NCBI GenBank assembly: GCA_964634935.1
Contig: CAZWJT010000008.1
Coordinates: forward strand, 26,063-90,062
Direction of reading: 5' to 3'
Length of the DNA stretch: 64,000 nt
DNA from: an uncultured Planctomycetia bacterium
GTDB taxonomy: Bacteria > Omnitrophota > Gorgyraeia > Duberdicusellales > Duberdicusellaceae
Part shown: in pieces, positions 1-62,141 of the stretch
How the letters are laid out: every line of letters starts with the position of its first letter
Numbering within the stretch: the first letter of the stretch is position 1
Notes under the pieces: generated by a model
What the model saw: only the letters and a program-made list of their open reading frames with translations
The model's database searches: none
What the model was told of the DNA's origin: nothing
Position numbers and translations under genes: made by a program

Positions 1-1645
1 GGATAAAATCCTCTCTGAAATTCAGGATACATCCTGTGAGTGCTATCTGGGCTTCTTGCAGCGACGCGCAGGAAGAACGGGCAACATGTTTCCGTGTAGA
101 ATAAGCCTTGGCAATATAAATTCCGGAGTCAACGCTCCCTGCAAGACCAAAGAGGCTCTTGTTTTCCCGTAAACTCGTCGTATCAATCAACACAAAATCA
201 TACTCTTCCCGTGCTTCTTTCAGGAACTTTCCGACGTTCTCCGAGGATAAAGTTCCTTCGGGATGAAGCGTATGTTTCAGACCAGCGGGAATTACTGAAA
301 TCTTATAGGAAGAAACTGGGATGACGGCATCGCGCCAGTTCATGTTGCCTTTGGCAATTTCCACAACTCCCAAAGTATGCTGAAGATTTAAAACCCGATG
401 CATATCAGAAGAAGAAACATCGGCATCAATCACAAGAACTTTTCCTTCAGAAATAGACGCAAGTGCGCTCGCAATGCTTAGCGTAAGCGTTGTCTTCCCA
501 TCTTTAGAATCATCGCTTGCCAGAAGGAATGATTTAAGGTTCTTCTCGCGCCGCAGATGATACAACTGTGATGCTACGTCTTTGATTGCTCCGTTATACA
601 TCTCCATTTCTCGCTGTAATTGAAAAATCTCGATACTGTAGAGAGGAAACGACCGGGGAAGCGTCCGTAAACGCGGGATTGCCCCGAAGACCTTCAAGCC
701 AAGCACATCCTGGATATTCCGTGAAGTCTTGAGTGTCTGTTCGAGAATCTCACGCAAAAATATGTAGCCAATCCCGACAAAAAGACCAAGAACAGCGGCT
801 AACACAACCGTCAGCAATTTTTTAGGCGATACGGGGCGCACAGGAACAGCGGCACTCTGAACAATTTTAACATCGCCAGAAGTGACTTTCCCGGCAAGCT
901 CTTCAATAGAAAGCGGAACCTCGCTCTGAAGTTCCCCTTCTGCCTGGGCTATTTCTCTGGCAAGCTTCACCACCCGAGGATGGGAAGCACGAAACTCTTT
1001 TTTGAAATCCTCAAGCTGCAAACGCAAATCGTAAATAACATAAGCTTTGGCAACCGCGTTGGCTATCCGTGCCGACATCTTCGCGTCGTAATCCTTTACT
1101 TTGATGGTAATTAAGTCAGTCCGCTCTATCTGCTCTATCCGCACTATCTTCCCGGAGCTTAAACGGTATACTTCTTTTTCAAATTTTGTGGGTTTTACCA
1201 ACGCCTGTTTTTTCTTACCGGTGATCAGAGCAAGTAAAGACCCTTTGAGCTCCGTATAGAGATCTGATATTTTTTCTTTTATTTCATCAATGGCGACTTT
1301 AATACTGCCGCGGATACCTTCGGGTTTCGGCCGGTTATGTAAATCCAGATACTTCACCACATCGCCCATGATAGCTGTACTCTGAATGAGGGCTGCCTGG
1401 GTTGCGCCGTGCTCAACACCCTGGCGGAATGGGCTAAGTTTTTCTGAGGTAGGAGTCGGAGGATTACTTTCTTGCGCCGAAAGGAGTATCTTCGCGCTCG
1501 CCTCAAACTGAGGAAGCACCAGATAGCTGTACACTCCGCTTACAATTACCGCGATCAGCACTACAAGAAAAACAATCGCTTTATGCCGGAAGAATACCCG
1601 GGCATAATCACGGGTCGAAACGTCTTGAAACAATACATCTTCCAT
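1..1645 (-). CDS. Polysaccharide co-polymerase (PCP-2a, Wzc/GumC-like) with C-terminal BY-kinase-type P-loop ATPase domain; 3' end (C-terminus) lies beyond the window start
   Basis: Not in the ORF track because there is no stop inside the window. My translation of the minus strand from ATG at 1645 (GGAGGA 6 nt upstream) gives MEDVLFQDVSTRDYARVFFRHKAIVFLVVLIAVIVSGVYSYLVLPQFEAS... This reads as an N-terminal TM helix, a Wzz-like periplasmic region, a second TM, then Walker A DSKDGKTTLTLSIA, Walker A' VLVIDADV and Walker B-like FVLIDTTS. Confidence 0.8.
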   Translation of the reverse strand, partial: MEDVLFQDVSTRDYARVFFRHKAIVFLVVLIAVIVSGVYSYLVLPQFEASAKILLSAQESNPPTPTSEKLSPFRQGVEHGATQAALIQSTAIMGDVVKYLDLHNRPKPEGIRGSIKVAIDEIKEKISDLYTELKGSLLALITGKKKQALVKPTKFEKEVYRLSSGKIVRIEQIERTDLITIKVKDYDAKMSARIANAVAKAYVIYDLRLQLEDFKKEFRASHPRVVKLAREIAQAEGELQSEVPLSIEELAGKVTSGDVKIVQSAAVPVRPVSPKKLLTVVLAAVLGLFVGIGYIFLREILEQTLKTSRNIQDVLGLKVFGAIPRLRTLPRSFPLYSIEIFQLQREMEMYNGAIKDVASQLYHLRREKNLKSFLLASDDSKDGKTTLTLSIASALASISEGKVLVIDADVSSSDMHRVLNLQHTLGVVEIAKGNMNWRDAVIPVSSYKISVIPAGLKHTLHPEGTLSSENVGKFLKEAREEYDFVLIDTTSLRENKSLFGLAGSVDSGIYIAKAYSTRKHVARSSCASLQEAQIALTGCILNFREDFI

Positions 1646-1664
1646 AGGATCCTCCATCGTTAGT

Positions 1665-2264
1665 TTAAAATAAAGCCTCAGGAATCACGATCACATCGTC
1701 CGGGAGAATTTGCACGTCGTTCTTGGTATCGCCCACTTTAGCGATACGATCGACATTGACGCGGATAACCTTATCTTTTCCATCCACTTGCCGTAAAATT
1801 TTTACTTTATTCCTGGCGGCAAAGTCAGTGAATCCTCCGGCGATAACGACTGCCTTCAGCGTGGTTAACCCGTCCTGTATCGGATACACGCCGGGTATTT
1901 TTATTTCCCCGTAGATATAAAACTGTTTCGGTTTACTCTTTCGCAATTGAACGCTGACTACCGGATTCACAATGTATTTCTGATCATAGAGATCTTTTAT
2001 CTGCTGGGTTGCCTGATCTACGGTCATACCCTGAAGTTTCACCGGTCCAAGCAAAGGAAGAATCGCCGTTCCGTCGGCGATGACGGTTGCTGTCGCGGAA
2101 AGCTCGGGATGATCGGCAACAGAAACTTCCAGAAGATCGTCCGTAACAATCGTATAGCTTGCATCCTGGGGTGGAAGTTGCTGCTGCCCTTCTTCGGCGC
2201 AACAAACAACGCTAACTCCAAAATGAACCACAAAGAAACACACTGCAAAAAACTTCTGTCTCAT
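1665..2264 (-). CDS. Short OPX (Wza-like) polysaccharide export protein; PES plus SLBB domains, no C-terminal OM-spanning helix
   Basis: Signal peptide MRQKFFAVCFFVVHFGVSVVCCAEE. PES/SLBB-like core YTIVTDDLLEVSV...GTAILPLLGPVKLQGMTVDQATQQIKDLY...IPGVYPIQDGLTTLKAVVIAGGFTDFAARNKVKILR. ATG at 2264 has GGAGGTG 5 nt upstream; the track start at 2300 is TTG. Confidence 0.8.
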   Translation of the reverse strand: MRQKFFAVCFFVVHFGVSVVCCAEEGQQQLPPQDASYTIVTDDLLEVSVADHPELSATATVIADGTAILPLLGPVKLQGMTVDQATQQIKDLYDQKYIVNPVVSVQLRKSKPKQFYIYGEIKIPGVYPIQDGLTTLKAVVIAGGFTDFAARNKVKILRQVDGKDKVIRVNVDRIAKVGDTKNDVQILPDDVIVIPEALF

Positions 2265-2275
2265 ACACACCTCCG

Positions 2276-3376
2276 TTAAAATTGATACGCAAACGAACAA
2301 TATGCTATATTCTTTGTATATTCAACCGACAGGTTTGAATTCTTATTTTCCCGAATGTATCCAAACCGCAGGGTAAAGTCTTTATTGAGCAAACACTGGA
2401 TATTTGTATCATAACGATAGACCGCGTCCTGCTCAGAGGTCGCGTCGTAGTTTGCGTGAAGATAAGAAAATGAATGAACCCAGGTAAGACGCCGGCTAAG
2501 TTGCTGTGTCAGCGCTACGCTACCCTGGAAAATGTCGACTACCGAATTTGAATAATCGACAACCGTATCCTGTTTTCGCACCGTACTCGTAAGTGTTGTC
2601 TTTTTCAAGAGTTGGATGAGCGCCTCAAAAAAATAGAAAAATGAACCGCTTGTGTCTGAAGCGACATCTTCAACGCGCTGGTGGCCAATTTTTACCGTAG
2701 ATGAAAAACGATTGTTAAAAATCTTCGTGAGCCCAGCATCAAACAACAGAGATTTTGTCGTGTCACCGCTGTCGAAACGCCTCTTTTGCATAGTCGCGTC
2801 AAACAAGAAAGAAAGCGTCGAACTGATTTTTTCAACCAGCGCAAAAGTTGAAAGATCACCGGAACTATCGAGAACACCCGGCACATCATAAAACACGGTA
2901 TCATGCGTATGCCCTAAGCTCAGTGTCGTATGGGCTGTCGGCGTAAAAATAAGCGTTGGCTTTACAGAGTTTGTCCAATAACTATTCCGCCCTATGGCAC
3001 CGATCAGCGCGTTGGTATAATAAGAAACATCATCTTCTGTGTATGTATCAGTCAACTTCAGGGTAATCTTGGGCAAGAGTTTATACTCAAGATCAAAAAG
3101 CGCATTATAAGCGATGTTATCAAGCTCGCTATGACGCTGATAATACCGGAAACTCGGGTTACAATACAAAAGAAGTTTTGCCTTATCTCCGGTAAAACTA
3201 TATTGTGCATTCGGAACCAAAATATGCAAAATATCAGAACTCTCATCCCGACTGCTGTAAAAAATATTGTCATCGAAGCGGGTCTCTTCAGTAACGCTCA
3301 GGACAAAATGCTTTGACTTTGCCATGACCGGAGCAGCCAGAAAAATGCTTGCGATTATAAAAATGACTTTCTTCAT
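2276..3376 (-). CDS. Outer-membrane beta-barrel protein (putative partner of the short OPX)
   Basis: Signal peptide MKKVIFIIASIFLAAPVMA. Alternating-hydrophobic strand pattern throughout and a C-terminal aromatic (…FAYQF) typical of OMPs. Its stop is 12 nt upstream of the OPX start. Confidence 0.6.
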   Translation of the reverse strand: MKKVIFIIASIFLAAPVMAKSKHFVLSVTEETRFDDNIFYSSRDESSDILHILVPNAQYSFTGDKAKLLLYCNPSFRYYQRHSELDNIAYNALFDLEYKLLPKITLKLTDTYTEDDVSYYTNALIGAIGRNSYWTNSVKPTLIFTPTAHTTLSLGHTHDTVFYDVPGVLDSSGDLSTFALVEKISSTLSFLFDATMQKRRFDSGDTTKSLLFDAGLTKIFNNRFSSTVKIGHQRVEDVASDTSGSFFYFFEALIQLLKKTTLTSTVRKQDTVVDYSNSVVDIFQGSVALTQQLSRRLTWVHSFSYLHANYDATSEQDAVYRYDTNIQCLLNKDFTLRFGYIRENKNSNLSVEYTKNIAYCSFAYQF

Positions 3377-3445
3377 CGAACAATCCTAACACAATAATGC
3401 TTCATAGAATCACTGCTCTGCCGCTCCTATGCGTTGAATGGATTT

Positions 3446-4429
3446 TTATTTTGAAGAAGGCTTGGTAAACCATGCAAGGTCAGAGTCAACCATCATTGCT
3501 ACCAAAGCCTCAAAGGTAACTTCCGGACTCCAGCCGAACGCGCGACGTGCTTTCTCGTAATTACCCTGCAGGGTATGCACTTCTGCCGGACGGTAAAATT
3601 TCTCATCAACCACAACATGGTCTTTCCAATTAAGCCCGACATGCGCAAACGCAAGCTCTACAAACTCACGGACCGAATACATCTTCCCTGTAGCAACCAC
3701 ATAATCATCAGGTTTTTCTTGCTGGAGCATAAGCCACATGGCTTTCACGTAATCTCCGGCAAAACCCCAGTCGCGTTTGGCATCCAAGTTACCTAAAGAC
3801 AATTTTTCCATCAGTCCAAGCTTAATCTTCGCCACAGCGCTTGAAATTTTCCGAGTCACAAATTCAAACCCGCGCCGGGGAGATTCATGATTAAATAAAA
3901 TCCCACTACAGGCAAACAATCCGTAGGCTTCCCGGTAGTTCCGGGTAAGATCAAACCCGGCTACCTTGGAAATACCGTAGGGCGAGCGCGGATGGAACCG
4001 GGTGTTTTCATTCTGAGGACTTTCTGTCACAAGACCAAACATCTCACTGGAACCCGCAAAGTAAAATCTGCAGCTTGGAGCCTTCTCTAAAACAGCTGAA
4101 AGCACGTAGTGTGTCCCGTTGATATTCGTGGTAATCGTGGAAAATGAATCTTCGAAAGAATAACTTACGAAACTCTGGGCGCCTAAGTGATAACATTCGT
4201 CAGGCTTTACTTTTTCGACAACATTAAAAATGCTCGGATAGTTTTCAAGAGACGCGGGGTGAAGATGAATGTCGTCCTGGATATGCCGTATCCTCCACAA
4301 CCGGTGGTCTGGATCTTCAAGTGCTACCCGGCGCACAATCCCATGAACCTCATACCCCTTGGATAAAAGAAGCTCCGCGAGATATGAGCCGTCTTGTCCG
4401 GTGATGCCGGTGATCAAGGCTTTTTTCAT
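3446..4429 (-). CDS. gmd: GDP-mannose 4,6-dehydratase
   Basis: MKKALITGITGQDGSYLAELLLSKGYEVHGIVRR... The SDR Rossmann motif and the conserved Gmd core are present throughout the 327 aa. Confidence 0.93.
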   Translation of the reverse strand: MKKALITGITGQDGSYLAELLLSKGYEVHGIVRRVALEDPDHRLWRIRHIQDDIHLHPASLENYPSIFNVVEKVKPDECYHLGAQSFVSYSFEDSFSTITTNINGTHYVLSAVLEKAPSCRFYFAGSSEMFGLVTESPQNENTRFHPRSPYGISKVAGFDLTRNYREAYGLFACSGILFNHESPRRGFEFVTRKISSAVAKIKLGLMEKLSLGNLDAKRDWGFAGDYVKAMWLMLQQEKPDDYVVATGKMYSVREFVELAFAHVGLNWKDHVVVDEKFYRPAEVHTLQGNYEKARRAFGWSPEVTFEALVAMMVDSDLAWFTKPSSK

Positions 4430-4488
4430 CGTTCTATCCTGCCTTCCTTTTCTTTGCTATAAGGCCTTAAGAAATATTCTGGTAAAAT

Positions 4489-5349
4489 TTATTTTACAAG
4501 CCGACGGAGATAATCGCGGTTCTCATCATCAAGCTCTTCGGACAATTTAAGAAGCTGGGTGTGGTTAATAAAACCCATGCGGTAAGCAACCTCTTCAAGA
4601 CAGCCAATCTTTAACCCCTGGCGTTCCTCAATGGTCTTGATAAAACCGGAAGCTTCGATCATCGACTGATAGGTTCCCGTATCAAGCCAGGCGAATCCAC
4701 GGTCTAAAAGAACGACTTTGAGTTTTCCGGCTTGCAAGTAGGTGTTGATAACATCAGTAATTTCAAGCTCACCCCGGGCTGAAGGGGTTAAATGTTTCGC
4801 TATTTCAACGACCTGATTGTCAAAAAAGTAAAGCCCGGTTACCGCCCAGTTGGATTTGGGTTTTTTTGGCTTTTCTTCGATTGAGAGCGCGCGCTGTTCT
4901 TCATCCAATTCAACAACTCCATAGCGCTCAGGATCACGTACGTAGTAGCCGAAGATTGTTGCTCCCTCATCAATGCCTTTGGCTGCGCGCAGATGATCCT
5001 GCAAGCCGTGGCCATAAAAAACGTTGTCTCCAAAGATAAGGCTGACATTCTTTGGTCCGATAAAATCCTCACCGATTAAGAAAGCGTCAGCAATCCCACG
5101 AGGCTCTTTCTGTACGGCGTATTCAATGCTGATTCCTAAATGCTTGCCGTCTCCAAGCAAACGCCTGAATTGCTCGACTCCGTGAGGGCTGGCAATAAGA
5201 AGAATTTCACGAATTCCAGCAAGCATTAATGTCGAAAGCGGATAGTAAATCATCGGCTTATCGTAAATGGGAAGAAGCGGTTTGCTTACTACCCGCGTTG
5301 CCGGATAAAGTCTTTTGCCTTTTCCCGCAGCTAAAATAATTCCGCGCAT
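4489..5349 (-). CDS. rfbA: Glucose-1-phosphate thymidylyltransferase
   Basis: [52 protein letters not shown]... is a canonical RmlA N-terminus, and the length of 286 aa fits. Confidence 0.93.
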
Positions 5350-5355
5350 GGAACT

Positions 5356-6897
5356 TTACACTCGCTTATAAATCCCGCTTGGAATCGGGAATGTCCGATT
5401 ATTTAAAACTACCCCTAAGATATTCGTCTGTTTTTTCTCAAGCGGAAGAAGCGCGGACTTTAACACCTGACGCCGCACCTTACCCTCGGTAACAACCACA
5501 ACTACCCCGTCGGTATGCGAAGCAAGGGCAACTGTGTCCTTGAATGGAGTAAGCGCAAGGCTGTCGATAAGCACGATTTCAAAACGCTCTTTTGCCAAGC
5601 GCAATACTTCCTGCATCGCGTGAGAGTCCAGAAGGGTCAACGGGTTCAGTTGTGTTTTCTGTCCCGGGAGAACCGCAAGATTCGGGTTTATTTCTTTTAA
5701 GGCTTTATCGAAGCTCATCTTTCCCTCGAGCACATCGACCAGCCCTTTTACTTCTGAAAAATAAAAAAGCTTGTGGATGGTCGGCTCGCGAAGATTCGTG
5801 TCGATGATCAGCGTTTTATGTCCGGCGGTCTTAGAAAAATAGTTGGCCAGGTTCACGATGGTGTTGCTTACCCCTTCCCCAATCACTGCTGAAGAAAAAA
5901 GAATTGTCTTCATTTTCCGATCCTTGGCCAAAAGATAAATCTGGTCTGCCACATCATGGTAGGAAATAAGCAGGGCGTTTTTGGGAATAAAGCCGAGGTA
6001 AGGAAATCCGAGCACCCGTTCAACTTCTTCCGGAGACTTAAACGTTTGGTCTAAATATTCAAACGCAAACGCGAGCATAATGCTTAAAAAAATGCTCATA
6101 AAAAATGCCAGAACCAGGGTAAGTCCGCGGGGAATTCCCGAAGGACGAAGTGGCAATGTCGCCTGCTCAAGAATTTTAACGCTGGCCGGGCCGATTGCCT
6201 CAACATCCGGAAGAGGCTGCCCGTCAAGATTCTTAATCATTTTATCAATATTGTCTTTGAGCTGTATCGCGGTTGGATGCTTGTCTCCATATTTTAATTG
6301 AGTTTCAGCAAGTTGTTGTTCAAGGTCAAAAATAACATAGGAACGGCTGATGACGTTCGCCAGGATTGCGGCACCTATGGGGCTATAGTCCGAAACGCTG
6401 ATAGTAAAAAGGTTTGTGTCGCGCACCGGCTCAACCTTTATCCGCTCTTTCAAACTTTCAACGGTAATCCGGAAAAGATAGGTTTTTCTCTGGTCTTCAC
6501 TCAGCTTTGCAAATTGCCGCTCCATCATCTTTTTGGATAGCGAAATAAAAGGTTTTTTAAGCCGTGAAGCAAAATTTTTCTCATAATCCAAGGGCAGATT
6601 AAATAACCCAGTTGCTTTTACCGCGCGCTCAATAACCGGACGGGAAGTAACGATTTCACTCTGAGTCAGCGCGACCTCTAAGTTTCTGGCACCGATAATT
6701 TCCCGGTAGTAGGGAGATTCAACCTGCTTCTCAGCCGAAATGAGCATTTTAACCGCAGCGGAATAAACCGGGGTCTTGAATTTAAGCCCGACAAATACGG
6801 TAATCATCACGGTAAGAAAAGCTGTGATAATCACCGCCTTCTGCCGGAAAAGGACTTTCAAATAATCGCGAAGGGTTAATTGAGTATACGCTTCCAT
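5356..6897 (-). CDS. Polysaccharide co-polymerase (PCP-2a-like) with degenerate, probably inactive, BY-kinase domain
   Basis: TM helix (AVIITAFLTVMITVFVGL), Wzz-like region, a second TM (LTLVLAFFMSIFLSIMLAFAF), then a P-loop NTPase fold whose Walker A reads SSAVIGEGVSNT (Lys replaced by Val) and which has no C-terminal Tyr cluster. ATG at 6897 is preceded by AAAGGAG; the track start at 6912 is an upstream in-frame ATG. Confidence 0.8.
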   Translation of the reverse strand: MEAYTQLTLRDYLKVLFRQKAVIITAFLTVMITVFVGLKFKTPVYSAAVKMLISAEKQVESPYYREIIGARNLEVALTQSEIVTSRPVIERAVKATGLFNLPLDYEKNFASRLKKPFISLSKKMMERQFAKLSEDQRKTYLFRITVESLKERIKVEPVRDTNLFTISVSDYSPIGAAILANVISRSYVIFDLEQQLAETQLKYGDKHPTAIQLKDNIDKMIKNLDGQPLPDVEAIGPASVKILEQATLPLRPSGIPRGLTLVLAFFMSIFLSIMLAFAFEYLDQTFKSPEEVERVLGFPYLGFIPKNALLISYHDVADQIYLLAKDRKMKTILFSSAVIGEGVSNTIVNLANYFSKTAGHKTLIIDTNLREPTIHKLFYFSEVKGLVDVLEGKMSFDKALKEINPNLAVLPGQKTQLNPLTLLDSHAMQEVLRLAKERFEIVLIDSLALTPFKDTVALASHTDGVVVVVTEGKVRRQVLKSALLPLEKKQTNILGVVLNNRTFPIPSGIYKRV

Positions 6898-6946
6898 AAA
6901 AACTCCTTTCATTGATTACGCATAACTATGCGGTTTTCTCTTCTCA

Positions 6947-7690
6947 TTAAAACATCCCCTCTGACACAACAACGATATCACCGGACTTCAGGGGAATATC
7001 CGCTTTCGCGTCTCCGTTCATCACCGCGCTGACATTCACCTTCAAAGTTTCATATCCTGATTCCTGCTCTTTCGCCCGGAGCACTTTCACCCGGCTGGAA
7101 GATCCATACTTGGTAAAACCGCCGGCCATGGAAATCGCTTTCAGCACTGTCGTGTTTTCATCTAAAAGGTATGTTCCCGGTTTCATGATTTCACCGTAGA
7201 CAAAAAACTTCTTGCTTCTGTTTTCCCGAAGCGCTACCGCGACAACCGGATACTTCATATAACCATCAGCGAGCTTTTCCTGGACAAGCTCCTGTACTTC
7301 AAGAAGCGTAAGCCCTTTCACTTGAAGATTGCCTACATAGGGAAAATTTATACTGCCATCCGGAGCAACCGTCACGGTATTGGCTAATTTTTCCGGCTGA
7401 AGAATACTAATATCCAACACATCGTCAATCCCAACTTTATAGCCGTTGTTCTGTTCAGAAATCTCTTCCTCTATTTTTTTTGCTGGTTTTTGAGCCTCTG
7501 CGGCAGCGGCTGGTTCTACCTCCGGGCTTAAACCAACCTCTGGCAACGCCGGAGTTTCCGGCTGAGCCTCAGAAAGTATTCCCTCATTCTGCTCCTGTTC
7601 AGCCTGCGTATCATTGAACGACTGAGCAAGCGCATTATGCGCGCCGCACACAAACAACGCCCCCGCCAAGATCATACACAATAGTTTCAT
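6947..7690 (-). CDS. Short OPX (Wza-like) polysaccharide export protein with Pro/Ala/Glu-rich linker
   Basis: Signal peptide MKLLCMILAGALFVCGAHNALA, then a low-complexity linker (PALPEVGLSPEVEPAAAAEAQKPAKK), then PES/SLBB: YKVGIDDVLDISILQPEKLANTVTVAPDGSINFPYVGNLQVKGLTLLEVQELVQEKL...GTYLLDENTTVLKAISMAGGFTKYGSSSRVKVLR. Confidence 0.8.
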   Translation of the reverse strand: MKLLCMILAGALFVCGAHNALAQSFNDTQAEQEQNEGILSEAQPETPALPEVGLSPEVEPAAAAEAQKPAKKIEEEISEQNNGYKVGIDDVLDISILQPEKLANTVTVAPDGSINFPYVGNLQVKGLTLLEVQELVQEKLADGYMKYPVVAVALRENRSKKFFVYGEIMKPGTYLLDENTTVLKAISMAGGFTKYGSSSRVKVLRAKEQESGYETLKVNVSAVMNGDAKADIPLKSGDIVVVSEGMF

Positions 7691-7741
7691 AGATTCCTCC
7701 GTTTTTTGCCTATCAGGTTTTAAAAAAACCATAACCATATA

Positions 7742-9148
7742 TTATTTTGCCCCTATCCCAAAAAGCACGACAGGGATAGTTTTGATAAGAATTTTTGTAT
7801 CAAGCCACAGCGACCAGTTATCTATGTATTCAAGGTCGAGCTTCATCCACTCATTAAAATCAATAATCTTACTCCGACCGCTCACCTGCCAAATACAGGT
7901 AATCCCCGGACGCATACTCAGACGCCTCCTCTGCCATGGCTCATACTTTGCCACTTCACTGGGGATTGGCGGACGAGGTCCAACCAAACTCATATCGCCT
8001 ACCAAAACATTCCAAAGCTGGGGAAGCTCATCGATACTGAATTTGCGCAGGAATTTTCCTATCGGGGTAAGCCGCGGGTCATTCTCCATCTTAAAAACAG
8101 GACCCTGCATCTCATTATGGACAAGCAAATCTTTCAATTTTTGTTCAGCGTCTTTAACCATGGTCCGGAATTTATAGAGCAAAAATTTTCTCCCGTTTAA
8201 GGTCGAACGCTCCTGACAGAAGAATATCGGACCAGAAGACGTAAGCTTAATAAGAATCGCGACCACGATAAACAGCGGCGTAAGCAGGATGAGCGCGCAG
8301 CACGAAGCACAAAAATCAAATATGCGCTTGCCCAGAAGATGCCACAACTTATCCGGTGTCGTTTCAAAAGTAAGTAAGGGAAACCCATGGAGATCGGATT
8401 GCTTGGCGCGGGAGAATTTAAGTTCAAAGTAATCAACCGCGACATGAATCCGCAATCCCTGGCTTTCGCAAAAATGAAGCGCCTCTTCAATTTTCCCCAG
8501 CCAATCCCGGGGAACAATAAAAACGATTTCATCGATGACATTGTTCTGGATAATATCCGGAATATCTTTGAGCGCTCCGATAATTTTCTGTTGTAATACT
8601 TCCTGGCCATGACGGGAAGAATCTTCGTCAATAACCCCAAAAATCTTTAAACCCCACTCGGTGTGTTCATTCACAAGCTCGATAAAATGCTGGGCGCGCT
8701 TGCCGGAGCCTACGATGAGAATGTTGCGAAAATTCATGCCGCGCTTGCGGATTGCCCGGAAGAAAATAACTAAAACGAACCGTTCAAAAATCGTAAGAAT
8801 TTCTGCGACGAGAAATGTGGCAGCAAGCACTGAGCGGTCAACGTGGATAAAAACTACGACATAAGCAAAACTGCTGACAATAATAAAAGCGAAAAGCCCG
8901 GTCTTTAAAATAGTAAAAATAATTTCTGAGGTCGGCTTGGTCCGGAATGAAGTATAGAGGCCGAATCGATAGAGAAAAATAGTCCAGGTCAGGATGATGA
9001 CCGGAAGAATAAAAAAGTAGTTCTCCAGGGGAAAACCATCTTTTGTCGTGTCGCGGAATAAGTAGGCGAGAAAAAATGAACCGCCCACAAGCAGAATATC
9101 GGCGAAAATCATCAGCTTCTTAAAAACGTTTATCTTTTCTTTCAGCAT
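7742..9148 (-). CDS. Polyprenyl-phosphate sugar phosphotransferase (WbaP/EpsL-like priming glycosyltransferase)
   Basis: N-terminal multi-TM region. C-terminal Bac_transf-type domain: IFDFCASCCALILLTPLFIVVAILIKLTSSGPIFFCQERSTLNGRKFLLYKFRTM...DELPQLWNVLVGDMSLVGPRP. Confidence 0.9.
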   Translation of the reverse strand: MLKEKINVFKKLMIFADILLVGGSFFLAYLFRDTTKDGFPLENYFFILPVIILTWTIFLYRFGLYTSFRTKPTSEIIFTILKTGLFAFIIVSSFAYVVVFIHVDRSVLAATFLVAEILTIFERFVLVIFFRAIRKRGMNFRNILIVGSGKRAQHFIELVNEHTEWGLKIFGVIDEDSSRHGQEVLQQKIIGALKDIPDIIQNNVIDEIVFIVPRDWLGKIEEALHFCESQGLRIHVAVDYFELKFSRAKQSDLHGFPLLTFETTPDKLWHLLGKRIFDFCASCCALILLTPLFIVVAILIKLTSSGPIFFCQERSTLNGRKFLLYKFRTMVKDAEQKLKDLLVHNEMQGPVFKMENDPRLTPIGKFLRKFSIDELPQLWNVLVGDMSLVGPRPPIPSEVAKYEPWQRRRLSMRPGITCIWQVSGRSKIIDFNEWMKLDLEYIDNWSLWLDTKILIKTIPVVLFGIGAK

Positions 9149-9173
9149 CGCTTGTTACTTTCCTAAAAAGGTT

Positions 9174-10313
9174 TTAAAATTTAACATTCATCCCGGCTGA
9201 AACCGTATTCCGCTTATATTCCCTGCCTGAATCATTGGAAGAGGTTTCCGCGTAAGAATAGGAAAGCGTTCCGACCATGTTGTCGCGAAGATCATAGGAA
9301 ATCCCGAGAGTCCCTCCCTGGGTAATATCAGTAATCCCGGAACCTAAAAATTCTCCTTCACCGTAAAAACCAGAAAGATTAAGCCGTAAACGCTCAAGGA
9401 GCTCTCGGCCCCAGGCAGTAGAAATTCTCCAGGAATTAAAAAGGTCTTCCCGGTCGGATGCCGGAGCATAGTTACGCAGATAGGAAATCGACCACGCTGT
9501 TCTTTGATCGAGCTCGTTGGTAAAGCCAAGCTGAAAAGCAGGCTTCCGGTATCGTTCACCACTGTAAGAATCAATAAAATCAATGCCGCTCCGCAGGTCA
9601 AAATAAAGCTGGTTGGTGAGATAATACCTGCCGCCTAAGGTGAGTGAATTGGTAGTCGCGTCACTTCCGGGCTTCAGCCAGCGCCTGGAAAGATCGTATC
9701 CAAAGAGCATCAGAATTTTTGAGCTGAACGCATAGTCGAATTCCACACCACCTCTGTGCTCATAGGAATCTATTTGGTCGGCCCTTGAACGGAGATTAGT
9801 ATCATAGGCATAGCGACCTAAAACAGTGAGCTGCTTGGTGAGGTCGCGGCTATAATCTAAAGAGGCGGTATTGCGGCTGTAGCGGTACCTCCCGACAGTT
9901 CCGCCAAACTGATCATCAAAACTATTCGGTTCATCCGCCCTGCGGAAGCTATCGCGCAACGTAAAACGGTCATATTTGGAAAGTTCTTGGGTAAGATTCA
10001 GCAAGAAGCTCTGGGATGTATTGTTAAAATCATTGTAGGTATCATATGAATGCCGGGTTACTGTGCCGGAAAGTTCAAGCAGGCGGTTCTTTGTTTCCGA
10101 ACGGGCTTTCAGCCCAATTGATAAATCAGTCCTCAGGTCATCTTTTGGATTCACCGAGGCAGAGGTGATATTATCATCGTAGGTTTCCCTCAAAGAACCG
10201 GTAAGTTCAAGGTCTACGTCACCAATGGTATAAGCAAAGGCATGAGCCGAAAGTAAAGACACCGTCCCGGTGATAAAAAAAACCCATACCTTTCTCTTTA
10301 TCATGCTTACCAT
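9174..10313 (-). CDS. Outer-membrane beta-barrel protein (second OPX partner candidate)
   Basis: Signal peptide ...FFITGTVSLLSAHAFA. Amphipathic beta-strand pattern and a C-terminal ...AGMNVKF. It sits immediately downstream of the priming transferase. Confidence 0.6.
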   Translation of the reverse strand: MVSMIKRKVWVFFITGTVSLLSAHAFAYTIGDVDLELTGSLRETYDDNITSASVNPKDDLRTDLSIGLKARSETKNRLLELSGTVTRHSYDTYNDFNNTSQSFLLNLTQELSKYDRFTLRDSFRRADEPNSFDDQFGGTVGRYRYSRNTASLDYSRDLTKQLTVLGRYAYDTNLRSRADQIDSYEHRGGVEFDYAFSSKILMLFGYDLSRRWLKPGSDATTNSLTLGGRYYLTNQLYFDLRSGIDFIDSYSGERYRKPAFQLGFTNELDQRTAWSISYLRNYAPASDREDLFNSWRISTAWGRELLERLRLNLSGFYGEGEFLGSGITDITQGGTLGISYDLRDNMVGTLSYSYAETSSNDSGREYKRNTVSAGMNVKF

Positions 10314-10447
10314 AATATGTCGCGGAAATTTGAAAATCAGAAATATCCCAAAACGAAGTGTTTATTATACAATAAAAGGGAGATTTTGGCAAGATTATTG
10401 CGCTTTTTGAGCTGAAACTAAAGAAATCAACAAATAATCAAGTAAAA

Positions 10448-10867
10448 TCAACCTATTTTGAGCACGCAAATTCCAGCAACAACGAGAACTGCTCCAAGCA
10501 CTTTAAGAAAGCTCAGCGGCTCTCCCAAGACAACGACTCCGAGGATAAAAGCAATGAGCGGGTAACTCGCGGAAATCGGAACTACCCGCGACATCTCTCC
10601 AAGCTGTAAACTGTGATAAAAACAAATCTGGGCAAGAAAACTCGCCAAAAATCCGCCAAGAACAAGAAAAAGAGCACCCCGTACATCAGCTACCTTAACC
10701 TGCTGTGTTTTAAGGATAAATCCGAGCATCATAAAACCAAGAACAACCCCGAAACACCGGTAAAATAATCCGATCATAGGAGGAATCTTGGTCAGCCCGA
10801 CTTTCTCAAGAAGCGGAACCACGCCCCAAATAAGCGCCGTTACAACTGCCCAGCTGAACCAATTCAT
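10448..10867 (-). CDS. Small DMT/EamA-like 4-TM membrane transporter
   Basis: 139 aa with four predicted TM helices and an EamA-like pattern (WAVVTALIWGVVPLLEK...). Confidence 0.65.
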   Translation of the reverse strand: MNWFSWAVVTALIWGVVPLLEKVGLTKIPPMIGLFYRCFGVVLGFMMLGFILKTQQVKVADVRGALFLVLGGFLASFLAQICFYHSLQLGEMSRVVPISASYPLIAFILGVVVLGEPLSFLKVLGAVLVVAGICVLKIG

Positions 10868-10928: not shown

Positions 10929-13900
10929 TTATTCGGGAAGAGACCCGTCGTTTACTTTAATCACAAATCCATCGCTGTGAGCTGTCATCTCCGGAGCGTA
11001 CATAGACTGAAGCGTCGCAGCACCAACCCGATATACGCCGGCTTTTGTAGGCTTCAAGCGGTACCGAACAACATACTCGCCGTGAGGAATCCAGCTAATA
11101 AAAAAATTAGTTAAAGAATCCCTCGGCTCTTCATAGAAAGAAAGTGGATCATACTTCCAGCCGCTCAACAATGTCTCCGCCTCAAAACCGGCCGGCTTGG
11201 GATCTTTTAAGTGCATATATTCAAACTGGCTGCGGGTATTCAAAGTAAGTTCGACTTCAACCTGATCACCCACAGACACTTCCCCGCCGAAGGCAAGCGG
11301 CTTTAAATGGTACCCGTCTTCTTCCTTGACTCTCCGGTAAAACACGCGCTTGAGCGCAAGTAATCCCGGCATAGAGGCTTCGGGTACCTGGTCAGTTGAA
11401 TATACCCACGTAAGACTTGTGAAGGCAATTCCCGGTCCTTCTTTTTTAACGGTCACCGAGGTATCAACCCCGCGAATATCGGATCCATTCTTCTGCCAAC
11501 GAAGCGGTTTTTCCAGCCAATCATCAGCTTTTACCAGCAGTGAATCGCTCACCCCTCCCCATTGAACTAAAAACTTTTCGTCAGCGCCAAACGCCCCTTT
11601 GGCATTTAAAAAATCAAGGAGTGAATAGATTGCGGCGGCGGAAGCCTTGGTCGACTTCCATACCCCTGCTTTCCGGCTAAACAAAAGCCACTGAACCATA
11701 CCTGGAATCCGTTTATCCTCTGGCCTTAATTCCTGCAATGTCTTGAGCAAAAACGCGTGTTTTTCCACAGTATCTGAATACCAGACCCAGGAATATTTTT
11801 CTGGGGTCCAGTATACTCCGGCTATCGGGTCTTCCCGCGCTCCGTCTAAAGCCATATCCAAAATTTCTTCTGCCCGTTTTCTGTCGCCAAGCCGAAGATG
11901 AACATACGCAAGATACGCTTTTCCGAAAGGAGTCAGCGCAGCTGAATGCTTGTCCAAAAATACAACCCAGGAACGCGCCGCATCAAAACCAGCCTTGGCC
12001 TGAGGAAATTCCTGAACCGAGAAAGAAGTCACAACATACGCGGCATAGGCCACGAGCGCAAGATAAGAATCTTCCGCTTTTAGTTTCAGCGGTATCTCTT
12101 GATTCACGTAAGCAAGAGCTTTTGAAATAACCTGCCAAGGAACTTCCACCCCATACCTGCGGGCATGGGCAAAACCGTCAAGTACATAAAGGGTGATGTA
12201 TGGATCTGCGGCTCCTCCCGGCCACCAGGGAAAAGCCCCGTTGGGAAGCTGGGACATTGAAAGCCTCGCAAATACAGAATCTCTCTGCTCTTTTACTATT
12301 TCGGGATTCAAAAGATCTATAATCGGCCACGGAGTCGGCCGTCCTTTTGACTGCCACATCCAGGGAGTTTCTAAAAGCGTAATCAAACGGGTAGGGCTAT
12401 CCTTTTCCCAGGCTGGTGACGGAGTCATTCGCGTTGGAATTTTACTGACCGCTCTTTGCAGATCCGGATATTTCTTATAGACTTCATTCACGATGCTAAG
12501 CGGAACATACTTATTCAGCATCTGCTCAACACATTCATAAGGATATTCGATAAGGAACGGGATGCTGTTTAAAATACTCAAGATAAGCTGCGGTTCAATC
12601 TGTAAGACCATCGATTCATTCTGCCGGGTCGGATCAGCTTTCAGCTTTATCTCAATTTTTTTCTCTCCGGTTCCCGATAGCAACCCGAATGTCGATTCAA
12701 TCAGCCGCTCCCGAGAAGAAAGAATAGGAAGCATTCTCTCCTCCGCGTCAGAAAGCTTTCCGGAAATCGCCGCAACCCGTACTTTGTACGCAGAAACCCC
12801 TTCGGGTATCTCGACCGGAAACTGAAAATTCTGGAGGCTGTTTGGTTCTACAAAAAAACTTTTTTTCGCTCCGGAAATCTTTAATGCGTCGTTTATATTT
12901 TTCTCTCCGTCAAACACTTCAAGGGAAAGCTCTCCCCTGAGAGCTTTCCCTGATTCATTGTGCACAACCGCCGTAAGCGTTCCCTTGTCTTTTTCTCTGA
13001 AAAATCTGGGAATATCAGCCCGAACCATTAAGTCTTTTCTGGTCACAGCCTCTTCAGCTGCTGTTCCTTCTTTTGCATCCTTGGTAAAAGCAAAAATCTT
13101 CGCTCTCCAGCTCGTTAGCTGCTCGGGAGCAGTAAAAGAAAATAACGCTTTACCGTCTTTGCCGGTAATAATGCTCGGTTTAAAAAACGCGGTATCGGCA
13201 AATTCTTTCCTGGATTTTACTTGCCCGGAAGATTGTTGTTCGCGTAAGTTACTGCCTGCATAACCGCTCTTCCGATCTTTTTCCCCGTTGCTTACTTCGG
13301 CCATTTTAGAGACTGTACCCAAACACAGACTATCGGAATACCCCTCATCTTTACCGAGACCGCGCCGTAGGCCTAGCCAGCTCCTCCAAGACCGTAAAGA
13401 TGGAGGCTGAGGAACTCTATCTTTTTCCCGGAATGAACTAAGAATTTTTTCGAGCATTCCCTCTGTAATTGGCAATGAGCTAAAATAGGGAATAAAAGCT
13501 GAATGCTGCATTAATCCGTAATACGTGTCTAACGCATAGAGGGAATCAAGCCACGGATGTTGAGAAACCGCGTAGTATTCAAGCGAGCGGTCATACATCA
13601 ATGCGAGCGCCTCTGCTTGTTCGGGATTTCCACGATCGTCTTTTACTTCAATGCCCCACGCAGTTTCTTTCCCGGGAGCAAGTTCTTTGGTGAAAGGATT
13701 TATGATAACCTGCAATTTCTTTTCAGGCCATGGCACCGAGATTGTGACCGCTCCGGAATGCGTCTGCCCGTTTTTTACCCCAAACCAACGCAGAGAAAAA
13801 CCGCCCTTCATTTCTTCGGTTACCGGAACCTCGAGAACCTGGACAGGAAATTTTCCGGGTAATAGTTCATTACGCAAAAAATATCCGTTTGCCCATAGTT

Positions 13901-16900
13901 CAAGACAATAGATCCCCGAAGCAAAACTTGAGCCGATGACAAATCGGGCAATATCACCAACCGCGCATTGCTCTTTTTCGCTCAGCATGACTGAAGCGGC
14001 ATTCACCGGAACCGCAGACTTTGGGTTTTTTGCCACAACAAAAATCTTACTCTGCTCTACTTTCTGACCCCAGGGATCTTCTGTTCTCTCGGTAATCCGA
14101 TAGACACCCTGTGGTAATTTACTCAGTTCAATCTGTGCTTTTCCATCTGCGCCATGTTCAAGAACGCCTTCGGTAATTTTTTTATCATTCGCAACATCCT
14201 TTAACTGCAAATCAAGCGGAGGCAGCCAGTGGCCAGGCAGATTCCCGTATTCTTGCGAATAACCAAATCCGAGTTCGTCGAGCGATTTAGCCGGAGTATC
14301 GCTTAAACGAAAAACCTCATAACTGCCTGATGCGCTCAAGGGAGTTTCATTTAAGGTAAGCAGCGCCGAAGAAATCCGGATAGGCTCATGCTCAAAGAAA
14401 AATCCTTTTTCAGGTTCAATGACAAAATACAACGCCTCTTTTCCCGCGGTGTAAGCCTGCTGAGCGGTAATCGTCCTTCCTCCGGCATCGCGGCCTTCAA
14501 CTTCGATGATGAATTGAGAAATATCCGGCAAGGCATTCCCTCCGTACATTGCCCCCTGCGGCACTGGCGTAAAGGGTATGAAAAAATTCCCCTGGGCGTC
14601 TGTTTTTATATCTCCCGCGACAAGATCCTGCGGATAGTCAGAATAGGATTGGACCCAATGGCGAAAACACCAGGGAAGATAAAATCGTTTTTTGATCCGG
14701 TATTTTACCGGCGCGTCAGGAACAACGCCTCCAAAATAATACCGCGCCTTACCCCGGATGGTAACTGGCTGGTTATATTTCCAGGGCTCAGACGCCTTTT
14801 CAAGAATGATCTCGAACTCCGGGCGCTTATATTCTTCCACGACAAAAGGTATCCTGGTGACATTGCTATAGCCTTCCCCGGCAATCAGGACACTTATCGA
14901 ATAGTTCCCAAGGACTCTGCCTTTTGGAATTTGAAAGGCCAGGCTCTCGCTGGCAAACTCTCCCAAAGGAATCTCCTTGCTGAAAAATTCTTCACTATTG
15001 GGATCAGACGCTGAAATCTTTACCGTGCCTCCTTGCAGAGTCCGGAAACCCTGAGGCGTACGCCACATGCCAATCGCCTTAACGTTCACAGTATCAGAAG
15101 GCCGGTAAATCGGCCGGTCGGTTTCCGCGAACACAATGATTGGATTGGGAGGTTCATAGAAAAAATAAATGTTGTTTCTTAGGTATGCAGACGCTCCTTT
15201 GTGGCGCGCAAGCGGATCAAGAGAATATCGCGTATCAGCTTCGGGAAAAACAGCGACTGGAACAGACAGTGACGCAAACCCGCGCGAATCAGCTTGAGAA
15301 TCGGCTGTTTTTTCTACGCTCCCACTATGGTTTAGATCACAAAGTAAACTGGTAATTTCTGCTTTTTCTATTGGCTCTCCGGTTTGCAGGTTGAGGGCGT
15401 AGAACCGGAAAACCGCGTCATCAATCTTTTCATCCTGAGTGTTCTTCTTGCTTAAGTATTGATAATACGCGGTACGCGCTTTTGTAGTTTGCCCTTGGCT
15501 TATCAACAGCGCAAAATCGGTGATATTCAAAAATCCTGCCCAAACGAATTCACTCCCAATGGAGAAATTACGGTTGGGGCTGGCAAGGATCAAAAAGACA
15601 CCTAATGGTAAATCCGGCGGCAGCGCAACCTCAGAATGGATAGCTTTGTAATTTTCGTATTTGGGAATATCAAATACCCAAGTCTTACAATAACTCTTCT
15701 GGGTTACATACTTCTTCACCCACTCATTCTCAGGATTATTCAGCAACGAAGACCACCCGCGAACATTCTTCCGCTCAGAAGCTTCTTGGCGGTACAGAAC
15801 CTGCGGATCAATCTGGTAAGCGCGAAAATAAATTTTCTTGATATTATTCGTACTTAAGAAGAATGTCTGCGGCCGGTCTGATTGAGCCGCAAGTACCCGC
15901 ATATGAAAAACCTGCAACTCTATTTGCTGGCGACGGGCGCGGGCTGTTTTGCTGGAAAAAGTACCCGGGAACGTCCGTTCAATCTCTTCGTAGAGATTCA
16001 CCGCCTCAGCGTAACTCTGTAAATTTTCGGCAAGAATCCCCGCTTCTAAACCGGCTTGCGCCTTCGCCGCTGCGGTAGAAAAATCGCGCATCCATCGCAG
16101 TAGAATCGCTTTTGCTTTCCTGCGCGCAGCTTCAATATCCTTAAAATCATACAAATGCGCATTCTGGAACGGGAAAATGAGGCGTTCAATTTCCCATCGT
16201 TCTCCGGCTTCAAAACGGACCGCGCTCCGTAAACGGCTTGCTTCCTCAATAAGTTCAAGCGCAAGCATCCCTGGCGAATCCTGGATATCCACCGGAAGAC
16301 GGAAATTCTCTACTAAAAATATATCTTCCTGTGGCCGGGGCAAGTCACGCATATTCTGTGCGTCCTGAAGAATAAAATGGATCCAGCTGAAAATGACATA
16401 ATCAAAAAGGGTGGGATACATTCCAAAATCTACGCCCTCGATCTGAAAAAAATAACCCTGAGCCCGCAGATCGACTTGAGCAAGCTCGCGGGACATACGG
16501 AGTAATGCCTGATAGGAAGATATAATCTCTTTTTGAAGCTGCTTTGGCGTTAAGCGAAATACGTCGGTCTCCCCCTCCCGGATGTCCGTTGACTGAATTG
16601 ATGAATATTGAAGAGAGAAATTTTGCAGGATTTCAGCTTTTAAGACTAAAACAAGCGCTTTATATGGCATCCGCTCTGGAAGCGTAACCTGGAGAACCTT
16701 CTCAGCAGCTTCTCCGTACCGGTATAAATGAGCAAGTGAATCACAAAGACGGAAAAAAGCCTTCCAGCGTATTTCATCGCGTGCGCTTTCTTGAAAAATC
16801 TTTTCATAGATGTTAGCCGCTTCCTGAAAAGCACGATTTTCAAAAAGCTCGTCGGCTTTGGTCAACTCCGCAGCAAATGAAGATGAAAAGAAGCAGAAGA

Positions 16901-35283: not shown

Positions 35284-35619
35284 ATGGAAGGAAAAACACA
35301 ACGAATTCTCCTGTTCTGGACACTGAGCGGAATTGGATTTCTTTTCTTTTTCGTTGTGTTTTTATCTTTTTCACCGACCGCATCAGCAGAAAATTCTACA
35401 ATTAGAATCGCCTGTATCATCCCTGAAATCCCAGGGAAAAATGTCGCAGTCATTGAAGAACATGCGACACTTCCTCTTCGACAAACAATTGACGAACAAA
35501 AAAAAGAAATAAGCCCAGAAAATAGTTATCCTCTGCTCTTCCAGAAAGAAACCAGAGAAAAAGTGGAAAGGGAAAATACAATCCTCTTGGTCACAACACA
35601 AACCGTCTACAGCCGCTAA
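35284..35619 (+). CDS. Small secreted/membrane-anchored hypothetical protein (111 aa)
   Basis: Strong RBS GAAGGAGGT 6 nt upstream of the ATG. N-terminal hydrophobic signal/anchor ILLFWTLSGIGFLFFFVVFLSFSPTASA, then a roughly 76 aa charged domain. No family recognised. Confidence 0.6.
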   Translation: MEGKTQRILLFWTLSGIGFLFFFVVFLSFSPTASAENSTIRIACIIPEIPGKNVAVIEEHATLPLRQTIDEQKKEISPENSYPLLFQKETREKVERENTILLVTTQTVYSR

Positions 35620-57424: not shown

Positions 57425-58402
57425 ATGCCACATCTTTCAGTCGTTGTCCCCACTCATAATAATGAACATACTCTGCCACAATGCCTCGAGGCCATTCGTT
57501 CATCGTCGTTTAAGGATTATGAACTCATCGTGGTCGATGGAGCAAGCACCGACCAAACACAATCAATTGCCAAAAAACATACAGATATCATAGTCTCCCT
57601 GAAAATGAACAACCGCGGTCTCGCCAGAAATGCCGGCATGAAATTGGCTTCGGGGTCTATATTGCTCAATATCGATTCGGATGTGGTAGTGATGCCTGAT
57701 ACTTTAAAAACAATTGTGGACTATTTTACCCTACATGCTGATGTTGACGCTGTAACCGGGCTTCTTTCAAAAACACACCCGAATACAGATTTTTTCAGCC
57801 AGTATAAAAATCTCTATATGCATTATGTGTTCCAAAATTTGTCAGAGCAAGTGAGTTTTCTCTATGGGTCTATCCATGCTTTTCGGAAAGAAGCGTTCCA
57901 GTGTTACAGCGAAACGATAATGACCGATGACACAGAACTCGGCCAGCGACTTACAAAATCCGGGAAAAAAATTTCCCTGATAAAAAAACTGGAAGTCATC
58001 CACTTAAAACCGTACACAGCATGGAAATTGCTGGAGAATGATTTTCTTATCCCTTTTGGCTGGGCTCATATTTTCTGGCGTTATAACGGAATTCTGGAAA
58101 TAAAGAACAGGCGGGGAAGATTTGCACACGCTTCAAAAATCCAGATTGCCAGCATCATAGGAGCATGCTTTACAGCCGTCTTAGCCATGTTGAGCTTTAC
58201 CAATATTTCATTAGGCGTAATCCTTGCTGCTTCAGCTGTGATCTGGATCCTGCTGAATACTAATTTTTTCCTCTTTCTGAAACAGGAAAAAGGAGTATTT
58301 TTTTTCATCCTTGCTATTCCAACCACCTTTATCGATAATATCGTTATGGCTCTTGGAATTTTTTTCGGTTCCTTAACGTATTGGATCAAAAAGAATCACT
58401 GA
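57425..58402 (+). CDS. Glycosyltransferase family 2 with C-terminal TM segments
   Basis: LSVVVPTHNNEHTLPQCLEAIRSSSFKDYELIVVDGASTD...DSD (GT-A DxD). Confidence 0.85.
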   Translation: MPHLSVVVPTHNNEHTLPQCLEAIRSSSFKDYELIVVDGASTDQTQSIAKKHTDIIVSLKMNNRGLARNAGMKLASGSILLNIDSDVVVMPDTLKTIVDYFTLHADVDAVTGLLSKTHPNTDFFSQYKNLYMHYVFQNLSEQVSFLYGSIHAFRKEAFQCYSETIMTDDTELGQRLTKSGKKISLIKKLEVIHLKPYTAWKLLENDFLIPFGWAHIFWRYNGILEIKNRRGRFAHASKIQIASIIGACFTAVLAMLSFTNISLGVILAASAVIWILLNTNFFLFLKQEKGVFFFILAIPTTFIDNIVMALGIFFGSLTYWIKKNH

Positions 58403-58406
58403 GGTT

Positions 58407-59849: not shown

Positions 59850-59861
59850 AAGAAGCTCATC

Positions 59862-62140: not shown

Positions 62141-62141
62141 C

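Follow-up and report, generated by a model that had tools for sequence, protein, structure and literature searches.

Two Class-3 OPX-barrel modules very probably head a Wzx/Wzy-dependent polysaccharide export operon of an uncultured bacterium

Polysaccharide export through a short OPX protein (for outer-membrane polysaccharide export) coupled to a dedicated beta-barrel, the Class-3 or composite OPX-barrel route, was described as a third route of wide occurrence by two groups in 2022 (PMC9601211, PMC9603273). Schwabe et al. reported 453 OPX proteins of at most 280 aa that are without the C-terminal α-helix and coupled to a barrel, with such couples in 10 phyla, and cited VpsN/VpsM of Vibrio cholerae as a validated short OPX and barrel outside the myxobacteria; Saidi et al. 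defined the Class-3 OPX and the Wzp porins (PMC9601211, PMC9603273). A biochemical mechanism for the Myxococcus system was presented in 2026, in which the C-terminal Phe203-Phe204 of WzaB was shown experimentally to bind WzpB, Arg106-Arg107 binds WzcB, and WzaB carries an LPAC lipobox whose lipidation is needed for oligomerisation (PMC12819527). The M. xanthus sets WzaB/WzpB/WzcB (BPS), EpsY/EpsX/EpsV, and ExoA/ExoB/ExoC are the closest known systems to the locus described here, which occupies positions 1-10313 of a 64,000-nucleotide stretch of contig CAZWJT010000008.1 from an uncultured bacterium (the whole stretch is hereafter the window). We concluded that this region is very probably the head of a Wzx/Wzy-dependent operon with two complete Class-3 OPX trans-envelope export modules.

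The locus consists of two sets, each with a polysaccharide co-polymerase (PCP), a short OPX, and a barrel, and all nine of its genes lie on the minus strand in the transcription order barrel2, PGT (priming polyprenyl glycosylphosphotransferase), OPX2, PCP2, rmlA, gmd, barrel1, OPX1, and PCP1. An identical metagenomic contig of 14.7 kb (L001) provided gene calls and a further 1.6 kb past the window edge. The nine genes are all real open reading frames (ORFs) with strong family matches (Pfam, NCBIfam), which confirmed the two PCP/OPX/barrel triads reported in the preliminary description of this DNA. That description had placed a PCP-2 gene before each OPX and a barrel gene after it; the components proved correct but the order did not, since on the minus strand the barrel comes first, followed by the OPX and then the PCP, and in set 2 the PGT gene stands between barrel and OPX. 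The three other genes that the sets were said to surround, gmd, rmlA, and the priming transferase, were all matched by family models. For the PGT these were TIGR03025 (446.8 bits vs. a cut-off of 295.6), Bac_transf (E 9e-72), and CoA_binding_3; gmd reached 410 bits on its Pfam model and 405.6 bits on TIGR01472, slightly under the cut-off of 415. Intergenic gaps across the array are 6-69 nt, no terminator-like sites were found between its genes, and the best sigma-70-like site of the region lies inside the 134-nt gap upstream of barrel2. Taken together, these features indicated that the array reads as one operon, of which this promoter-like site may be the start; the total of promoter-like sites in the region was not above shuffle expectation. 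The minus strand carries every sizeable ORF from position 1 to ~17 kb.

The assignment of both OPX proteins to Class-3 followed from their domains and from the residue at which they end. Solely Poly_export, SLBB, and SLBB_2 domains were found in them (Pfam, NCBIfam), with E values for Poly_export and SLBB of 1.3e-19 and 1.8e-10 in OPX1 and of 1.9e-19 and 4e-11 in OPX2. At 199 and 247 aa, which are precursor lengths as called on L001, they fall within the Class-3 definition of Poly_export (PES) and SLBB only and at most 280 aa; the earlier figures of about 200 and 247 aa for the mature proteins were therefore mistaken. Alternative starts, a TTG at 2300 that is the first start codon of its ORF and an ATG at 7738, would lengthen OPX1 to 211 aa and OPX2 to 263 aa, respectively. 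OPX2 has a signal peptidase I (SPase-I)-like signal (ALA/QS) and an acidic Pro/Glu-rich linker. Among all PDB sequences, the best match of OPX1 was 9N9A (M. xanthus sWzaB; E 1.2e-28), as it likewise was for OPX2 (E 6.3e-24), and both alignments reach the last residue of query and target. Thus, like WzaB, the window OPX are D1D2-only, end at the same residue, and carry a C-terminal hydrophobic-Phe dipeptide, which by analogy would bind the barrel; their C-termini read ...IPEALF and ...SEGMF, so that the tails EALF and EGMF stand against ESFF in WzaB. In a comparison of ten OPX proteins (the window's two and eight relatives), all end at the column of the WzaB FF, the last residue being Phe or Ile and the one before it hydrophobic, namely LF and MF in the window and FF, WI, LF, LI, IF, LF, VF, and VF in the relatives.

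The comparison with the Class-1 Wza-Wzc system of E. coli pointed in the same direction. The Poly_export and SLBB regions (D1 and D2) are homologous to those of Wza, with E values of ~1e-10 to 1e-15 against 2J58, 9R60, and others; however, the matches stop at about residue 230 of 359, leaving D3 and the D4 helix without counterpart. Unlike E. coli Wza-Wzc, the window sets have no D3, D4 OM (outer membrane) helix, lipobox, or PCP Tyr cluster, and a separate barrel would serve as the pore. No C-terminal OM-spanning helix (Wza D4/Wza_C) or GfcC domain was found in OPX1 or OPX2, and only 7 and 34 nt separate the OPX stop codons from the starts of the following genes, so that correction of the start codons cannot add a C-terminal membrane helix. 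The earlier claim that both proteins have PES and SLBB domains and are without the C-terminal amphipathic helix was thereby upheld, and the case that was considered to speak against it, an OM helix emerging after start correction, was ruled out.

Both barrel proteins passed PF10082 (BBP2_2, putative beta-barrel porin 2), barrel2 at 48.2 bits and barrel1 at 36.8 bits against a gathering score of 23.7, with the model aligning to just their C-terminal 80-110 residues. Each has a signal peptide (...AHAFA/YT in barrel2 and ...APVMA/KS in barrel1) and a C-terminal Phe. AlphaFold2 (AF2) models were built from 43 homologues for barrel2 (mean pLDDT 91.2) and from six sequences for barrel1 (pLDDT 85.0). 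The barrel topology expected for both genes was borne out, as DSSP assigned 18 transmembrane strands to each model, and neither contains a plug helix. A Wzi-like or GfcD/YjbH-like role was considered for these barrels and rejected, there being no family match and no plug. The family profiles of barrel1 and barrel2 aligned over their full length (99.9% probability, E 2e-35; hhalign), by which the two are clear homologues of each other. For barrel2 there were 44 homologues of 30-46% identity, the named ones being Candidatus Omnitrophica. The barrel1 family is rare: an exhaustive representative search gave five other representatives at E<1e-20 among 1.84 billion, with about five relatives still at E<1e-30, a word-indexed protein search with barrel1 returned only barrel1 itself, and the six-member family profile added only P0058. 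Searches of the PDB sequences with the barrel2- and WzpB-family profiles found nothing, and we found nothing relevant in the literature on PF10082, DUF2320, TIGR03016, or TIGR03014.

The relationship between the barrels and OPX genes was addressed in independent contigs. Of 12 related barrel genes, 11 had a short OPX gene next to them or with one gene in between; in the window itself, the barrel adjoins the OPX in set 1 and is one gene away in set 2, well inside the distance of five genes by which the class is defined. Six barrel2-type contigs were examined, and the order barrel, PGT, OPX, and PCP (~520-530 aa) was observed in L004, L007, L008, L059, and L063, with Wzx further downstream of the lone modules L004, L007, L008, and L063 and Wzy as well in L008. 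All four readable barrel1-type loci (L009, L059, L060, and L061) have the barrel followed by an OPX of 192-198 aa, and in L009 and L059 this order continues with PCP, Wzy, Wzx, and glycosyltransferases. The barrel gene directly upstream of OPX in set 1 resembles the Myxococcus arrangement, as wzpB lies upstream of wzaB in L011. This recurrent pairing indicated that the barrels are not stray generic porins, and the coupling overturned the possibility, raised with the preliminary description, that they are porins unrelated to polysaccharide loci.

Profile comparisons related the same barrels to those of the myxobacteria. We aligned the barrels directly upstream of wzaB from 11 WzaB-encoding metagenomic loci (the WzpB family) and compared them using hhalign with the barrel2 family (80.8% probability, collinear over 341 columns) and the barrel1 family (70.7% probability, collinear over 330 columns), with E ~1e-5 in both cases. 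As controls, five reversed alignments, three of them against the WzpB family, and 20 block-shuffled ones were used; all 25 gave at most 3.6% probability and aligned short stretches only. In addition, all three barrel profiles matched the barrel of a further metagenomic contig, L043, with 67, 29, and 42 bits in a set of 609 ORFs. At 115-2604 this contig encodes the barrel, with the same DNI motif, and then a WzaB-like OPX of 380 aa, which has three SLBB repeats and the C-terminus ...VPESFF; on these matches, the L043 barrel bridges the PF10082-type and the myxobacterial Wzp barrel families. Unlike WzpB, the window barrels are ~50 aa shorter and pass PF10082, which none of the four WzpB-type barrels scanned did. 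We take the window barrels to be remote homologues of the Wzp porins (MXAN_1916 family). Saidi et al. found Wzp homologues in myxobacteria only, by BLAST and HMMER (PMC9601211, PMC9603273). From our profile alignments, the Myxococcus Wzp porins and the PF10082-passing barrels, including distant TIGR03016/EpsL relatives, appear to share one superfamily.

The PCPs completed each set. PCP1, the full length of which was obtained from L001 because its last 25 nt (7 codons and the stop) lie outside the window, matched Wzz, GNVR, and AAA_31 (Pfam) and has an alternative ATG at 1657; PCP2 matched Wzz at 28.2 bits and TIGR01007 at 110.3 bits against a cut-off of 108.05. With these matches, the Poly_export/SLBB, Wzz, and AAA_31 families named for verification in the preliminary description were all found. 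Both proteins have two transmembrane helices around a periplasmic loop (~215 aa in PCP2) and, like E. coli Wzc, are PCP-2 partners with a cytoplasmic P-loop domain. In this domain, Walker A is intact in PCP1 (DGKTT) and degenerate in PCP2 (GEGVSN), and the Walker A lysine was retained in none of six PCP2-type proteins and in three of four PCP1-type proteins. All ten PCP C-termini read ...IY(K/Q/E/D)xx with a single Tyr, the window pair ending ...IYKR(L/V), and none of the ten has a Tyr-rich C-terminal cluster. PCP2 accordingly has what its sequence shows as a dead P-loop. The status of a BY-kinase PCP-2a (Wzc-like), which calls for intact Walker A, A', and B motifs together with a Tyr-rich C-terminal cluster, was rejected for both PCPs, as neither has a Tyr cluster and Walker A is lost in PCP2. 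A phosphorylation-independent PCP-2 has been proposed for EpsV/EcpK (PMC12004946). Like this subfamily, the PCP2-type proteins are without the Walker A lysine (6/6) and without a Tyr cluster; these apparent traits fit the phosphorylation-independent PCP-2 idea and match that of a BY-pseudokinase scaffold. In contrast to EpsV/EcpK, the degenerate P-loop domain is here fused to the PCP rather than a separate protein, and PCP2 shares its operon with a paralogue having an intact Walker A.

The preliminary description was right that no wzx or wzy is present in the window, yet both begin just past its edge, where it had suggested looking. On L001 (13121-14720, beyond window position 1), a 497-aa Wzy_C protein begins 15 nt after PCP1, and the ORF that follows shares, over its first 40 aa, 51% identity with the N-terminus of a Wzx (Polysacc_synt) at the same position in a syntenic relative. 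That relative, L059, contains a complete PGT, Wzx, and Wzy set. A contig search among reference genomes with the Wzy protein returned only an unrelated Saccharibacteria match. As the Wzy_C gene and the start of Wzx lie directly downstream of PCP1, a Wzx/Wzy-dependent extracellular polysaccharide pathway is supported. The locus thus shares with the Myxococcus systems an 18-stranded barrel, a PCP-2 partner, and the Wzx/Wzy context, and together with the D1D2-only OPX and the synteny, these features sustain its assignment to the third export route typified by Myxococcus EpsY/EpsX.

On this basis, we proposed a mechanism in which the single PGT would start repeat units on undecaprenyl phosphate, with RmlA and Gmd supplying part of the sugars, and the repeat units would be flipped by the downstream-encoded Wzx and polymerised by Wzy. 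A PCP-2 co-polymerase in the inner membrane would then meet a ring formed by short D1D2 OPX subunits that lie wholly in the periplasm and whose hydrophobic-Phe C-termini would dock on the periplasmic rim of the dedicated 18-stranded OM barrel; the OM pore would be formed by the barrel, not by the OPX. The physical contacts of the OPX with barrel and PCP, like the direction of flow, are inferred from the analogous M. xanthus WzaB/WzpB/WzcB.

The presence of two modules in one array raised the question of their age and purpose. The paralogues are 32% (OPX), 27% (PCP, over the full length), and ~23% (barrels) identical. The same tandem was observed in the divergent L059, in the order barrel, PGT, OPX, PCP, sugar-nucleotide genes, barrel, OPX, PCP, Wzy, Wzx, and glycosyltransferases. 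Orthologues of the window and L059 are 28-63% identical, each pair being closer than the cross-set comparisons (21-39%), which indicated that the duplication predates the split of the two genomes. A recent duplication was therefore rejected, and by these identities the two sets are old paralogues and their tandem layout is ancient. Single modules were observed in four other set-2-type loci and in at least one set-1-type locus; the tandem is a conserved option, not a rule.

Only a single PGT, Wzy, and Wzx can be seen in either tandem locus. Use of the operon's one assembly line by both modules is a real possibility, if somewhat short of probable; the PCP2-type module would then be phosphorylation-independent, and ATP binding would persist in the PCP1-type module. 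The two modules might instead export two polymers, with set 2 using a Wzx/Wzy pair from another place, such as past the glycosyltransferase cluster at the right window end, and with the tandem being two adjacent, co-oriented loci by chance. We regard this explanation as possible, though doubtful. In other genomes, either type of module stands at the head of a complete locus: modules of the set-2 type come with a Wzx of their own (L004, L007, and L063) or with both Wzx and Wzy (L008), and those of the set-1 type with a PGT (L060) or with Wzy and Wzx (L009). The loops and C-termini of the OPX are set-specific, suggesting separate cognate partners, and a second glycosyltransferase cluster does exist at 57425-63967. 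However, ~20 kb of sequence in both tandem loci holds no more than a single PGT, Wzy, and Wzx, the genes lie close together in one orientation, and the arrangement was kept while the orthologues diverged to 28-63% identity. A stronger version of the shared assembly line, in which some Omnitrophota have a two-lane machine with two anciently diverged modules maintained in tandem as a functional unit sharing one PGT, Wzy, and Wzx, the PCP having a dead P-loop in one module and an intact Walker A in the other, seems to us rather unlikely. If it were true, the lanes might release the same polymer in two forms (different chain lengths, or attached vs. shed), or the two PCPs might regulate each other. 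To our knowledge, no Class-3 OPX system has been described as a two-lane machine.

Exosortase-associated extracellular polysaccharide (EPS) loci of the XrtA/PEP-CTERM type (TIGR03027, TIGR03016, EpsL/TIGR03014, and TIGR03007/03018) likewise combine a short OPX with a dedicated barrel and a PCP, and they were the best-scoring NCBIfam neighbours of the OPX proteins and the barrels. The top NCBIfam matches were TIGR03027 for the OPX and TIGR03016 for the barrels (barrel2 also matching EpsL), the barrels having no other NCBIfam neighbours; the PCPs matched TIGR03018 and TIGR03007. If the locus belonged to this class, the OPX would be of the TIGR03027 type and the barrels of the TIGR03016/EpsL type; yet the window scores lie far below the cut-offs, at 113 and 107 bits against 180 for TIGR03027, 37 and 42 against 91 for TIGR03016, and 25 against 275 for EpsL (TIGR03014). 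Moreover, no exosortase family was present among the Pfam annotations of the window genes or of the 10-kb flanks of the related loci, and neither exosortase nor PEP-CTERM genes were seen in the window or the related loci. We thus consider this explanation very unlikely.

Several observations weigh against placing the locus on a Myxococcus-like Class-3 route. Unlike WzaB, the window OPX have SPase-I-type signals, no lipobox, and no twin-arginine PCP-binding loop: a canonical lipobox, judged by eye, was present in none of the ten OPX, which have AxA-type SPase-I sites instead, and where WzaB has Arg106-Arg107, OPX1 has Val-Asn and OPX2 has Lys-Tyr, the conserved loop at this site (xNP or KYP) being peculiar to each OPX subfamily. 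According to Saidi et al., ~30% of Class-3 OPX are of the SPI type (PMC9601211, PMC9603273), so that lipobox-free OPX lie within the known range of the class. The Myxococcus PCPs have been described as extended (PMC9601211, PMC9603273, PMC12819527); the window PCPs differ in being 518-556 aa long with periplasmic loops of ~215-235 aa, which by their length appear short rather than extended. The barrels are only distantly related to WzpB (16% identity; hhalign probability 71-81%), and one of the six barrel2-type contigs, L006, contains a family member without a nearby OPX. Finally, Foldseek against the PDB returned generic barrels only, with TM at most 0.55 and with OccD/OccK porins and TonB receptors first; the synthase-pathway porins AlgE and PgaA, to which barrels of this class are held to be structurally closest, fell outside the best 50 matches, PelBC ranked 29-36, and these ranks of the modelled barrels did not support a specific structural link to polysaccharide porins. 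The barrels could on this evidence be ordinary diffusion porins or Wzi-like surface-anchoring lectins that lie near OPX genes by chance, with export by some other OM route, as the Foldseek neighbours (generic porins and TonB receptors only) and the L006 member would suggest, but this is highly improbable given the pairing with an OPX gene, at most one gene apart, in 11 of the 12 related barrel genes, the OPX proteins without a membrane-spanning segment of their own, the lack of any Wzi or YjbH family match and of a plug helix in the models, and the profile homology to WzpB that withstands the controls.

The coordinates of the nine genes and of the candidate promoter are listed in table 1.

Table 1. 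Genes and candidate promoter of the export locus, in window coordinates
Feature	Position	Strand	Description
barrel2	9174..10313	-	379 aa, first gene of array; PF10082, AF2 model
PGT, priming polyprenyl glycosylphosphotransferase	7742..9148	-	468 aa; sole PGT of array
OPX2	6947..7690	-	247 aa, Class-3 (D1D2) OPX; Poly_export and SLBB
PCP2	5356..6912	-	518 aa, PCP-2-type co-polymerase; Wzz, TIGR01007
rmlA, glucose-1-phosphate thymidylyltransferase	4489..5349	-	286 aa; TIGR01207 448.6 bits vs. cut-off 360.65
gmd, GDP-mannose 4,6-dehydratase	3446..4429	-	327 aa; PF16363 E 9e-123
barrel1	2276..3376	-	366 aa; PF10082, AF2 model
OPX1	1665..2264	-	199 aa, Class-3 (D1D2) OPX; Poly_export and SLBB
PCP1	1..1645, runs off window edge	-	556 aa, PCP-2-type; Wzz, GNVR, AAA_31
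Candidate sigma-70-like promoter TTGCCA-17-TATAAT	10364..10392	-	Consensus match, 11/12

Directly upstream of barrel2, a 139-aa half-size EamA/DMT membrane protein is encoded (10448-10867, minus strand), with a weak likeness to an ArnF-type undecaprenyl-sugar flippase subunit (E 2e-4, below the cut-off), and immediately upstream of the locus lies the gene for a 2002-aa bacterial alpha-2-macroglobulin (10929-16937, minus strand; MG2, A2M, bMG10). In three related contigs, a protein with HTH_17 and an HD domain is encoded directly upstream of the barrel2-type gene (L004 9262-9999, L005 1611-2348, and L063 9222-10004); it could be a regulator of the locus there, and the gene is absent from the window. 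The cluster at the right end of the window comprises a GT2 gene and a flavin amine-oxidase-like gene on the plus strand and then GT4, GT1, GT2, and GT1 genes on the minus strand; it runs off the window end and may include further polysaccharide genes. At 42724-46381 (minus strand), a NodU/CmcH-type carbamoyltransferase (588 aa) is encoded near a 444-aa ALGX protein with a faint SGNH match, and the two may be polysaccharide-modifying enzymes distant from the main locus. A c-di-GMP-I riboswitch (RF01051; 35107-35208, plus strand; 58.4 bits, gathering score 35) is located 76 nt upstream of an ORF of 111 aa (35284-35619, plus strand) with a signal-peptide-like N-terminus and no Pfam family, and beside this ORF a protein of 1040-1074 aa with weak T2SS-T3SS_pil_N and SdrD_B matches is encoded divergently. 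The ATP synthase alpha and beta subunits had no relative above 90% identity in a collection of 15 billion proteins, and the source genome is not among the GTDB species representatives; the source lineage is poorly sampled.

Taken together, the locus is a new example of an already described system, with variations but no new principle, and it does not overturn the current understanding of this export route. Its one unusual trait, which sets it apart from the Myxococcus systems, is that one operon holds both modules alongside just one priming enzyme, polymerase, and flippase. The short OPX with a dedicated barrel is hereby extended into an uncultured, deep-branching lineage, by the names of the barrel2 homologues probably Omnitrophota. 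The conservation of the hydrophobic-Phe tail of the OPX across this distance supports the tail as a general porin-docking motif, and OPX lipidation and the twin-arginine PCP contact, which are not conserved, may be specific to Myxococcus. With two modules beside one assembly line, the locus offers a natural test case for partner recognition among PCPs, OPX proteins, and porins.

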